From the sequence record NC_014260.1: a stretch of 64,000 nt of DNA; one strand, given 5' to 3'. The notes beneath the pieces were generated by a model. That model made no database searches and was not told the origin of the DNA. It worked only from the letters and a program-made list of their open reading frames with translations. Every line of letters begins with the position of its first letter. Positions within the stretch are counted from its first letter, which is position 1. The stretch is from Escherichia phage IME08. The position numbers and the translations under genes were made by a program. Positions 29,596-60,767 of the stretch are shown piece after piece.

Positions 29596-29596
<1 letters not shown>
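29399..29596 (-). CDS. hypothetical protein
   Basis: Start ATG overlaps pseT stop (TAATG). Confidence 0.4.
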
Positions 29597-30796
<1,200 letters not shown>

Positions 30797-32602: not shown

Positions 32603-32631
32603 ATACTAACACATCATGAGGAGATGTAAAC
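32603..32631 (-). promoter_or_regulatory. T4-type early promoter (GTTTAC-N17-TAGTAT)
   Basis: Plus-strand ATACTA 32603-32608 and GTAAAC 32626-32631. Confidence 0.55.
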
Positions 32632-33779
32632 TACTCTACCACAATTTCTTTCAAATATTTTTCAGGGATTTGGGCTTTATGGTTTTTCAAGAACACCGAG
32701 TTAATCTGGTCTACAACCGTATCATAATTAATACCGCCTACGTACGCCTGCATAAGAATAGAGAACAACCCTGGGAAGTCCTTAAGGATTAGCTGTCCGG
32801 TAACGGCATAGTCTTTACGGTCGCGGCCCTTGAGTTGGGAATACGCTGCTTCCAACAAAGCCAATGATTGTTCTAGGTAATCTAAATGGATGCGTTCAAA
32901 GGCATCGATTTTCTCGATAGCAAACGAATCTGTACTGAACAGACCACGAAGGTCGTCAGTTCCACCTGCCACTACAACTTCAAACAAACGTTCGTTATTG
33001 TTAATGGAATCTTTGGTATGATGCAATGCACTGTACCAGGCAGTTTTGAGTTTAAAGAACGTACCATCTTTCAGTACAAAGATGAAACCTTCAATACCCT
33101 CTTGTTTACGGATGTTTTCTACGAAATCACCTTCAGTGAGGTCATAACTTTCAACCAAATGCTTACGCAGGGCCCCATCTTTAAACAGTTCGGCATACGG
33201 AATATATTCACCTGTTTCATTATTACGAACATTCAACAGGATGAGGTTTGTTTCTTGGTAAGCCAGCACGATACGGTTGGTAGGTGCAACATATTCAAGG
33301 TTGCAGGTATACCCAGCTTTGGTGATTTCTTCTAGACGTGCGGCAAAAGCCTCGTTCTCAGGGAGACGAAGGAAGCGTAAAGAATCATGCACCATTGATG
33401 AATGGATAGAGCCTTTAGATTTAACAGAAAGATACTGTCGGTCCATGAATGTAGAAATCAGAGAACCATCTTCCTTAGCCATTACGAGGTCGATATTTTC
33501 TGGCGACAAATCTAGACCGATAGTCAGTGGGTTTTCGTCAAGGTTAAAGAACTTTTGCATAGGACGAGCAGCAATACGTACCGGACCGTTCTCGTCCATT
33601 TCAAACATAATGCCACGGCACTCTAGTGCGCCGTCTTCCAACCAATCACTGTACGATGCATAGTTATAACTAAAGATGCGATAGTTGACTCCTAGCGCAC
33701 TCTGAAAGTCTTTAAAGAAGAACTTAGATTTAGTCGAGTTTTTAACCAGGGCCATCAAGTTATCATATAATTCAATCAT
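32631..33779 (-). CDS. rnlA: RNA ligase 1
   Basis: 382 aa; KEDGSL adenylation motif; position. Confidence 0.85.
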   Translation of the reverse strand: MIELYDNLMALVKNSTKSKFFFKDFQSALGVNYRIFSYNYASYSDWLEDGALECRGIMFEMDENGPVRIAARPMQKFFNLDENPLTIGLDLSPENIDLVMAKEDGSLISTFMDRQYLSVKSKGSIHSSMVHDSLRFLRLPENEAFAARLEEITKAGYTCNLEYVAPTNRIVLAYQETNLILLNVRNNETGEYIPYAELFKDGALRKHLVESYDLTEGDFVENIRKQEGIEGFIFVLKDGTFFKLKTAWYSALHHTKDSINNNERLFEVVVAGGTDDLRGLFSTDSFAIEKIDAFERIHLDYLEQSLALLEAAYSQLKGRDRKDYAVTGQLILKDFPGLFSILMQAYVGGINYDTVVDQINSVFLKNHKAQIPEKYLKEIVVE

Positions 33780-58376: not shown

Positions 58377-58478
58377 CTTTTTAAAGTGAGCTGCTATTAA
58401 ACCTATAGCTAAGCCTGTCGCCAGGCCTAGGATAACAGCAAAGATACAGAGTAACAAGAACTCGACTCCAAGGCTCAT
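58377..58478 (-). CDS. small hydrophobic membrane peptide, hypothetical
   Basis: 33 aa MSLGVEFLLLCIFAVILGLATGLAIGLIAAHFK; start ATG overlaps gene 52 stop (ATGA). Confidence 0.3.
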
Positions 58479-59854
58479 AGAGCCTCCAAATCTTTAACAT
58501 ACTCAGTTACCACATCAGTGGTTTTCCAGTATCGGTGCTCTTCTTTCTTAGCCTTGGCTTCGAGGGCCAGTTTCTTGGCTTCATCAGAAGTGATATGGAA
58601 AATGTTCATGGCCACTAGTTTATCAGCGTATTCGCCATAGACTTTATTACTAGCCAATTCTTCGGTTAAAACCTTGCGAGTCTTACCTTGGATAACCACT
58701 ACACCATCAATAACATCTTTGATAAATGTGGCTTTAGCCAATGCCAGTTTGAAAGCTTCTTCAGTTTCGATGATTTTACCATCAATACGTTTCTGTACAA
58801 AGGTCTTACGGACCTCAACGAAATCACGAATCAGTTCAACTGCATCTTCGTAAACCTTAAGTTTACCTTTCTCATTAATGACAGTCAGGTTTTGTGAACG
58901 ACGTTCGATTAACCCGAAGTCCTTCATGATTTTTTCATGCTTCTTATTTTCTTCGGTAGGCAATTCATATTCTTTACGAATCTTAACCTTGAAGCCGAAA
59001 CCGTTCTCGTCACAGTCATCATCATATGTGATATACCCTTTGTCTTCCAGAGGGTCTAATATCTTGGCCACATATGTTTCACGGTCATATTTGTACGGGA
59101 TTTCCGTGATATGCATTTGGGTTCGGGATGTGAACTTATACGTTCCACGAATCTCATAACTACCTGGTTCAATTTCAACAACTTCACCACGGAATTCAGG
59201 ATAAGCCACTTTAGGTTTTGTTACTCGTTTTTCCTGAAGAACTTGCAATACAGCTTTCTTAACAGAATCAAAACTATGAGGAAGAATATTAGTTGCATAA
59301 CCAGTTGCAATACCGGAAACGCCATTAAGAAGAACAGTAGGAATAATAGGCAGATAAAAAGCCGGTGGCTTATGTTCGACATCCGCATGAACCGGAGCAT
59401 ATTCTGTGTCCTTATAAACTTTTGCAAAGTTACTTCCAATACGTGCAAAGATATAACGAGAGGCCGCAGCTTTTTGAACCAATCGGGAACCAAAGTTACC
59501 TTGACCGTCTAACAATGGATAGTTGTTGTTCCATGTGTTAGCCATCAAAGCCCCTGCTTCCTGAGCAGAACCTTCACCATGGTGATATCCAAGGTCGGCT
59601 ACACCACCAGCGATAGAAGCCAGTTTGTGGAATTTTTCTTTATTACCACGAGCCATATCAAGACAACGAGCAACCACAAAACGTTGTACAGGTTTAAAGC
59701 CATCAATCATATTTGGAATGGCTCGGTTTTCGACAGTATACATTGCATAAGCCAATGCTTCGTTGTCGATAATACTTTTTAAGTCACGAGGAGTAAAAGC
59801 ATCGTCGTAAACATCTAAAGCCTGTTTAAAAAGGGTATCAATTACATCAGCCAT
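58475..59854 (-). CDS. 52: DNA topoisomerase II medium subunit gp52
   Basis: 459 aa; GyrA-like N-terminus (AIPNMIDGFKPVQRF…, SRYIFAR with active-site Tyr context). Confidence 0.9.
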   Translation of the reverse strand: MADVIDTLFKQALDVYDDAFTPRDLKSIIDNEALAYAMYTVENRAIPNMIDGFKPVQRFVVARCLDMARGNKEKFHKLASIAGGVADLGYHHGEGSAQEAGALMANTWNNNYPLLDGQGNFGSRLVQKAAASRYIFARIGSNFAKVYKDTEYAPVHADVEHKPPAFYLPIIPTVLLNGVSGIATGYATNILPHSFDSVKKAVLQVLQEKRVTKPKVAYPEFRGEVVEIEPGSYEIRGTYKFTSRTQMHITEIPYKYDRETYVAKILDPLEDKGYITYDDDCDENGFGFKVKIRKEYELPTEENKKHEKIMKDFGLIERRSQNLTVINEKGKLKVYEDAVELIRDFVEVRKTFVQKRIDGKIIETEEAFKLALAKATFIKDVIDGVVVIQGKTRKVLTEELASNKVYGEYADKLVAMNIFHITSDEAKKLALEAKAKKEEHRYWKTTDVVTEYVKDLEAL

Positions 59855-59861
59855 AATTTTA

Positions 59862-59999
59862 CCATACTAGTGAATGAATAGCCATAATAACATCGGAAAT
59901 AAAAAGCACAACTTGGATAAGTCCGAACATTACTCCATAATACAGTGCTACTAATAAAGCAGCAAGGGCTAACGAGTAGCCCAGGATTTTATTAATCAT
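59862..59999 (-). CDS. small hydrophobic membrane peptide (ac-like position), hypothetical
   Basis: 45 aa MINKILGYSLALAALLVALYYGVMFGLIQVV…. Confidence 0.3.
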
Positions 60000-60153
60000 T
60001 TTTAATCATCTTAAGTAAACCGACAAAAGCAGAAAGAACCCAGCCAATAAGCAGAAAACTTAAAAATATTGGACCAGGGGTCCACACACCTAAAAAGAAG
60101 CAAACCGAACAGACTATAGCCATAATAAGTTCAATAAAAACTAGGATAATCAT
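59992..60153 (-). CDS. small hydrophobic membrane peptide, hypothetical
   Basis: 53 aa MIILVFIELIMAIVCSVCFFLGVWTPGPIFLSFLLIGWVLSAFVGLL…; its stop overlaps the next ATG. Confidence 0.3.
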   Translation of the reverse strand: MIILVFIELIMAIVCSVCFFLGVWTPGPIFLSFLLIGWVLSAFVGLLKMIKND

Positions 60154-60163
60154 ATTTTCCTCA

Positions 60164-60241
60164 TTAGCGTCCGAAGACGCCTTTAGTTTTAAGATTGTTA
60201 CGATAGAACTGCATCACATGTTCGTTATGGAAATTGCTCAT
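60164..60241 (-). CDS. stp: Stp peptide (suppressor of three-prime phosphatase; host restriction / anticodon-nuclease modulator)
   Basis: 25 aa [25 protein letters not shown], essentially the recalled T4 Stp; ATG overlaps ndd stop (TAATG). Confidence 0.75.
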
Positions 60242-60690
60242 TAGTATGCCTGCAGAATGAATTTAAAGTTATCAGCCAACATGCGGTTCATTTCTTCCAG
60301 TGTCTGGAGGTCGGAACTATGATTGCGAGTGAAAGCCATTGCAATTTGACCCTTACCAAAACCTGTAGTCAGAGGTTTCATCTTAGAAGCCGGTACATAA
60401 AGAACTTCATACACAACACCATTCACTGCCATGGTGCGAGCTGATTGAGAACGTTTCTTACGAATGTTAGCCACAATACCATCAAGACCTTGAGCAGAAC
60501 GTTGATTACCGACATAAAAACGAGCAGCTACGACACGAGAATCAGCTCCACCTTTAACAAAGAAGTAGAAGCCTGGTTGAGCAGAGATTTCTTTAGAAGG
60601 TTTACCATTTTGGTATTCACCATTCTTAACATAAGCAACAGTAGTAGCACCAGCAGACAGAACGTTACGGCGAGTCATATAAGTATTCAT
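60241..60690 (-). CDS. ndd: nucleoid disruption protein Ndd
   Basis: 149 aa; [10 protein letters not shown]…[12 protein letters not shown]…TRNHSS…[16 protein letters not shown] matches recalled T4 Ndd. Confidence 0.85.
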
Positions 60691-60767
60691 ATCAATTTCC
60701 TCAGTAGATTAATGTTTTGTTATCCAGTCAACGAGAACCATTATAACATGATTCTCGAGGTTGTAAA

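Follow-up and report, generated by a model that had tools for sequence, protein, structure and literature searches.

A conserved ndd-stp-52.1-52 block with a proposed small membrane-peptide cassette in the Dhakavirus-type T4-like coliphage IME08

The Stp product of phage T4, which has been proven both genetically and biochemically to act as a peptide (PMC3014915), is necessary and sufficient for activating the tRNA-Lys anticodon nuclease PrrC (PMC3014915, summarising Penner et al. 1995). This activation proceeds via the inhibition by Stp of the type Ic enzyme EcoprrI, and EcoR124I is inhibited too (PMC3014915); a 2025 review gives the mechanism of EcoprrI inhibition as still unknown (PMC12707154). 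Loss-of-function suppressors in Stp cluster at residues 4-14 (PMC3014915, citing Penner et al. 1995), its N-terminal 18 residues are almost invariant, and removal of the eight C-terminal stp codons results in only a moderate drop in activity (PMC3014915). In T4, stp (165505-165585) lies directly after ndd, with which it shares one nucleotide in a TAATG-type overlap, and the genes are ordered ndd-stp-ac-52.1-52, with a further overlap of 8 nt between ac and 52.1. The 51-aa hydrophobic product of ac (phrog_2501) is a proposed, but not directly proven, blocker of the AcrAB-TolC transporter (bioRxiv 10.1101/2025.06.30.662393), and gp52.1 is a 46-aa peptide encoded directly upstream of gene 52. T4 mRNA is also where extra-stable CUUCGG hairpins were first described (PMC4371310).

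We analyzed a 64,000-nucleotide stretch (hereafter the window) of the roughly 170-kb genome of Escherichia phage IME08 (NC_014260.1), which displays the same gene order and the same 1-nt and 8-nt overlaps on its minus strand between positions 58475 and 60767. The five genes are ndd, stp, an ORF coding for a hydrophobic 53-aa peptide (ORF53) in the place of ac, 52.1, and gene 52. The first of these (60241-60690) codes for the nucleoid disruption protein of 149 aa (Pfam PF06591, 230 bits; phrog_1102), which is identical to T4 Ndd at 95 of 152 positions (63%). The last (58475-59854) codes for the 459-aa medium subunit of DNA topoisomerase II, as established by alignment with T4 gp52 (359/460 identical, 78%), and its counterpart carries the gp52 annotation in the phages JS10 and WG01. 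Between them lie stp (60164-60241), ORF53 (59992-60153) and 52.1 (59859-59999). The stop codon of ndd and the ATG of stp share a single base (TAATG), and the stop of ORF53 overlaps the start of 52.1 by 8 nt (ATGATTAA); both junctions had been noticed in the initial annotation. It had further given the two hydrophobic peptides as 53 and 45 aa in length, of which the former is correct and the latter is in fact 46 aa; the start coordinate of 59862 given there omits the stop codon. The profile matches obtained for the 25-aa, 46-aa and 53-aa ORFs (72, 78 and 94 bits, respectively) indicate that these small ORFs are not chance occurrences. The block is closest to the Dhakavirus genomes UGJNEcP3, WG01 and JS10, with 96-97% nucleotide identity, and the curated annotation of JS10 already has stp and 52.1 at the matching positions. 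We hold it to be very probable that the region is a conserved early/delayed-early block of a Dhakavirus-type T4-like coliphage, with the organization ndd-stp-small membrane-peptide cassette-52.1-52, and that Stp with its attendant repair enzymes, gp52.1 and the slot occupied by ORF53 are to be read as set out below.

The annotation of these genes in public records is uneven: stp is unannotated in most deposited T4-like genomes, where only 'ndd' appears under the match, and the ORF53 homologue (L001 2098-2259) is unannotated even in the curated JS10 record. Further, the N-terminus of the gene 52 product comes in two forms among the Dhakaviruses, namely the 459-aa form seen in the window (58475-59854), which begins with MADVIDTLFKQ, and a 442-aa form that begins with MELTSRGLKSII and resembles that of T4 (comparison loci L004, L005 and L006, from 2800). 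The existence of these two forms suggests a further mosaic boundary just downstream of 52.1.

The 25-aa ORF had been taken to be T4 Stp from the outset, and the alignment bears this out: all 25 residues are identical to residues 1-25 of the T4 peptide, with only the C-terminal Gln26 being absent. It matches Pfam PF08133 (Nuclease_act) over positions 1-25 of the 26 in the profile with 72.1 bits (E 2e-20; gathering cut-off 25 bits) and phrog_6763 with an E-value of 1.6e-20, and stp is the curated gene name at the matching position in both JS10 and T4. Peptides with at least 99% identity to it are encoded in 437 phage records. At the nucleotide level, IME08 differs from T4 by a TAA that replaces the CAG codon of Gln26 and by two synonymous changes. 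It had been envisaged that the peptide might depart from Stp at residues needed for activity; none of these is changed, with residues 4-14 and the N-terminal 18 residues being the same as in T4. As no important residue differs, it is very unlikely that the absence of Gln26 has any effect. A sequence search of the PDB with Stp recovered no match, and hence no solved structure containing it, and searches of NCBIfam and PADLOC yielded no meaningful matches for any of the three peptides. We also observed a second natural allele of Stp, MSNF(H/Y)NEHVMQWHRHNLKLTGVFGRP; its departures from T4, at residues 12, 13 and 15, fall within the N-terminal 18 residues that have been called nearly invariant. 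It is found in VR7 (L017 1501-1581), NC-G (L002 1678-1758), and the loci L006, L008, L022 and L023.

The window also codes for both enzymes of the T4 tRNA repair pathway, and the two ORFs initially assigned to them are real and full-length. On the minus strand, pseT (29596-30504) specifies the 302-aa polynucleotide 5'-kinase/3'-phosphatase Pnk, which acts in tRNA 'healing' (Pfam HAD_PNKP and AAA_33), and rnlA or gene 63 (32631-33779) specifies the 382-aa RNA ligase 1 (Rnl1), which acts in tRNA 'sealing' (Pfam RNA_lig_T4_1 and T4_Rnl1_C). Pnk retrieves T4 Pnk (1LTQ) with an E-value of 3e-187 in a phmmer search and retains the P-loop GCPGSGKS, Arg126, and the phosphatase DVDGT motif (Asp165/Asp167), while Rnl1 matches its T4 counterpart (2C5U; E 3e-113) and retains the KEDGS adenylylation motif. 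Given that the catalytic motifs of both enzymes are intact, it is reasonable to expect, on the strength of T4 genetics, that this phage depends on Pnk and Rnl1 on prr+ hosts. By analogy with T4, Stp would bind and inhibit the type Ic restriction enzymes EcoprrI and EcoR124I; in hosts carrying prr this inhibition would unmask PrrC, the tRNA-Lys anticodon nuclease, after which the cut tRNA would be mended by the Pnk and Rnl1 of the phage.

With regard to the two hydrophobic peptides, it had been missed at first that the one of 46 aa corresponds to gp52.1, which has a name in T4 and is highly conserved, and that the one of 53 aa occupies the position of ac in T4 without being related to it. The former matches PF24129 (DUF7396) over positions 1-46 of 46 with 78 bits, against a gathering cut-off of 27 bits, as well as phrog_3595, and is identical to T4 gp52.1 (L003 5210-5350) at 44 of 46 positions (96%), the two exceptions being the conservative substitutions K3N and L41I. 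The two genes differ in 14 codons, 12 of them synonymously and two non-synonymously; set against the 63% and 78% identity of the flanking Ndd and gp52, this points to clear purifying selection on gp52.1. In its own right, gp52.1 is thus far more conserved than the adjacent Ndd and the essential gp52, and is among the most constrained proteins of the block. Its placement relative to gene 52, with the 52.1 stop ending at 59859 and the gene 52 ATG at 59854, is the same in T4, JS10, VR7 and TU02, and it was found in 886 phage records. AlphaFold, run on the single sequence, models it as one continuous helix spanning residues 2-45 (pLDDT 96), with a conserved Asp36 inside this hydrophobic helix, and the peptide is strongly hydrophobic overall (GRAVY 1.75). 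We read gp52.1 as a strongly conserved and probably membrane-inserted peptide.

ORF53 shows a full-length match to phrog_9347 (positions 1-53 of 53; 94 bits, E 7e-27) and none among the Pfam families. It is likewise strongly hydrophobic (GRAVY 1.86), and the AlphaFold model displays two helices, at residues 2-21 and 28-52 (pLDDT 75), by which ORF53 is predicted to form a membrane hairpin. The family is preserved at full length across the Dhaka-, Gapriver-, Kanagawa-, Kagamiyama- and Winklerviruses, with E8, G22, W24, P26 and W38 being invariant. It is represented in 88 phage records and in seven clusters among 5.8 billion proteins. When the ORF53 alignment was used as an HMM to search 1.8 billion representatives exhaustively, four matches were recovered, three of them genuine (52-54 aa) and the fourth (P0010) rejected as a repeat-protein artefact; neither Ac nor any bacterial relative was among them. 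Scans of IMG/VR with ORF53 and with T4 Ac gave five close loci each, and the diversity considered here was therefore drawn from GenBank phage records. By these searches ORF53 is a narrow family, seen in T4-like phages only. The phage vB_EcoM_005 (a 155-kb record; L007 2501-2713) presents a divergent case, in which the homologue is 70 aa long and runs into gene 52 and 52.1 was not detected, pointing to either a deletion or an assembly problem.

The boundary between stp and ORF53 is marked by a compact RNA element. Codons 21-25 of stp (GVFGR), together with the first base of its stop codon, can form a C(UUCG)G tetraloop hairpin (GGCGUC-UUCG-GACGCU; 60166-60181, minus strand), which is present in both the minimum-free-energy and centroid folds with a local z of -2.27; the folding of the whole 431-nt block is not significant (z = -1.37). 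This is the same motif as in the hairpins of T4 mRNA, and that of IME08 sits within the last five stp codons, before the next Shine-Dalgarno sequence. The hairpin pairs in 12 of 12 loci, in which three variable positions stay paired via G.U; these loci display no compensatory covariation, and any function of the hairpin is accordingly one that we infer. Its codons are also constrained as protein, as the homologue from the Drexlerviridae retains KGVFGK using different codons and without the hairpin. On the same strand, it is followed by a translation-initiation region (UGAGGAAAAUAUG; 60151-60165) comprising a GAGG Shine-Dalgarno sequence (60159-60162) and the ATG of ORF53 (60151-60153), which is invariant before both ORF53-type and ac-type genes in the 12 loci; T4 stp shares both the hairpin and the Shine-Dalgarno element downstream. 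The combined stretch (60151-60181, roughly 32 nt) is invariant across both alleles of stp. The hairpin could be envisaged as an intrinsic terminator acting on sense transcription; this we rejected, since it lacks a downstream U-run on the minus strand. On the antisense (plus) strand, the hairpin is followed by CTTTAGTTTT (60167-60190), which attains a terminator-like score, with no gene being present there, and a 'terminator' feature appears under stp in two GenBank records.

With respect to transcription, a sigma-70-type promoter-like site is found on the minus strand about 50 nt upstream of ndd (60740-60767), with TTTACA and TATAAT separated by 16 nt, an upstream TG, and 11 of 12 matches. 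Going by this consensus match, the site may serve as the early promoter of the unit ndd-stp-ORF53-52.1-52, and the block is probably transcribed from it. A weaker promoter-like hexamer pair, with 9 of 12 matches, lies inside ORF53/52.1 (60014-59986). MotA-box middle promoters, looked for with a regular expression, were represented only by weak matches within coding sequence, and no late T4-type promoter (TATAAATA) was found. In terms of consensus matches, ORF53 has a good GAGG Shine-Dalgarno sequence, and stp and 52.1 have weaker sites combined with overlaps, suggesting that their translation could be coupled through the TAATG and ATGATTAA junctions.

Across the Tevenvirinae genera, the interval between ndd and gene 52 contains varying combinations of stp and four mutually unrelated families of small hydrophobic ORFs, namely a 57-aa family, the Ac-type, the ORF53-type and 52.1. 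Members of the 57-aa family, which end in FERL..CG(V/I)(I/Y)(K/E), occur directly after ndd in many genera, often without stp (L002 1512-1685; L005 2247-2420; L014-L016; L020-L024); no ORF of this family is present in the 64-kb window. Every Ac-type or ORF53-type gene that we examined in stp-carrying genomes is preceded by GGCGTCTTCGGACGC, 4-5 nt, and TGAGGAAAATATG, corresponding to the hairpin formed by the final five stp codons and to the Shine-Dalgarno sequence behind it. In JS98, IME281, NC-G and TH40, which contain an ac-type and an ORF53-type cassette in tandem, the two are separated by recombination scars, in which a piece from the 5' end of 52.1 joins a 3' part of stp (52.1'::'stp) at a GAGTAAT microhomology. 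These scars are located at approximately 2350-2490 in JS98 (L006), at the same position in IME281 (L008), and at 1912-2019 in NC-G (L002) and 1356-1458 in TH40 (L023); that of NC-G is an intact chimeric ORF of 35 codons. They fit a process of cassette exchange or tandem insertion by recombination between conserved flanks. Taken as a comparison of sequences, the above suggests that ac and ORF53 are cassettes that can replace one another, with a left boundary at the hairpin and Shine-Dalgarno sequence where stp ends and a right boundary where 52.1 begins. Of the arrangements seen, that of the window is the simplest, comprising a single stp and a single ORF53 cassette, and ORF53 is an alternative, non-homologous occupant of the slot held by ac in T4. 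Extending this, we tentatively propose, as a possibility deserving of some caution, that the sequence separating stp from 52.1 serves specifically as a site of exchange for small, unrelated inner-membrane peptides of the Ac-, ORF53- and VR7-types, delimited by the hairpin/Shine-Dalgarno element and 52.1, and that ORF53 is an unstudied effector directed at the host membrane that replaces or complements Ac, for instance by acting on another host transporter or on a membrane-associated defence.

On a different reading, ORF53 would be equivalent in function to T4 Ac, and perhaps even its extremely diverged orthologue; in the inner membrane it would either raise acridine uptake or block AcrAB-TolC, such that the phage would be acriflavine-sensitive by virtue of ORF53. 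This reading has in its favor the location of ORF53 between stp and 52.1 with the same 8-nt overlap with the latter, the comparable size (53 versus 51 aa) and hydrophobicity of the two peptides, the absence of any Ac-like ORF from the 64-kb window in a search with the Ac HMM, and the proposal of AcrAB-TolC as the target of T4 Ac (bioRxiv 10.1101/2025.06.30.662393). However, a global alignment of ORF53 with T4 Ac yields just 14 identities over 59 positions, with no detectable homology, hhalign, run on profiles built from 12 ORF53 and six Ac members, returns a probability of 0.8%, and the two are assigned to distinct PHROGs (phrog_9347 and phrog_2501). The one feature they share, a C-terminal Asn-Asp, follows from the overlap (AATGATTAA) with 52.1, the start of which is invariant. 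Moreover, NC-G, JS98/IME281, TH40 and EcS1 each have both an ORF53 homologue and an Ac-like gene, an argument for different genes with different roles rather than orthologues. We therefore regard equivalence to Ac as unlikely, and an Ac-like, transporter-directed role of ORF53 in the membrane as possible but unsupported. The close association with 52.1 raises the alternative that ORF53 and gp52.1 form a hetero-oligomeric inner-membrane complex, be it channel-like, transporter-modulating, or acting in superinfection or defence, with translational coupling setting the stoichiometry. ORF53 is indeed always adjacent to and directly upstream of 52.1, overlapping it in the Dhakavirus loci and EcS1, and in each peptide a single conserved acidic residue is embedded in a hydrophobic helix (E8 of ORF53, D36 of gp52.1). 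Against this, gp52.1 occurs without ORF53 in T4, which has Ac instead, and in the Jiaodavirus TU02, and ORF53 and 52.1 are about 130 nt apart in the Kanagawaviruses. As gp52.1 is present in 886 records and ORF53 in 88, the former cannot depend on the latter, and we find a complex of this kind quite improbable.

Finally, one might question whether the small ORFs are translated at all, their conservation instead reflecting nucleotide elements such as RNA structure or regulatory sites for gene 52. The very stable hairpin formed by a portion of stp, and the promoter-like hexamer pair within ORF53/52.1, would be in line with this. Yet 12 of the 14 codons of 52.1 that differ from T4 do so synonymously, the Drexlerviridae homologues of Stp keep the peptide despite their different codons and lack of the hairpin, and the frame and key residues of ORF53 are retained across genera at identities of 33-60%. 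Together with the established peptide nature of T4 Stp (PMC3014915) and the unremarkable folding of the block as a whole, these observations leave us giving next to no credence to such an explanation.

Outside the T4 group, we encountered Stp-like peptides, mostly unannotated, in siphophages of the Drexlerviridae and Skatevirus (L018 1483-1575; L019 1501-1581; L025-L027 about 801-881). We do not put forward the T1-like homologues as new, as those of Drexlerviridae such as TLS and Stevie were already published in 2015 (PMC4319613). The Drexlerviridae peptides have in common with Stp the core (S/N)(F/W)HNEH(V/I)MQ(F/W)YR, corresponding to the functional residues 3-14, whereas most of them differ in the C-terminal half and occur in another genomic context, without ndd or 52.1 as neighbors. 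In the Klebsiella phage Samwise, the Stp-like ORF is situated approximately 0.5 kb upstream of a gene for a polynucleotide kinase.

In conclusion, Stp, gp52.1, Ndd, gp52, Pnk and Rnl1 all belong to well-known T4 families, from whose already-known biology we infer their activities in IME08. The value of the present analysis lies mainly in correct annotation, given that stp and ORF53 are frequently overlooked in deposited genomes. What is mildly new is descriptive, namely the ac slot as an apparent recombination site for cassettes of unrelated membrane peptides and the conservation of gp52.1 in excess of that of its essential neighbors. Both gp52.1 and ORF53 are reasonable targets for functional study of the small membrane proteins of T4-type phages. 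At the same time, the classic counter-defence triad of Stp, Pnk and Rnl1 is carried by this Dhakavirus-type phage; with the triad in place, the phage should trigger PrrC-type anticodon nucleases and survive, which helps predict its host range on prr+ strains.
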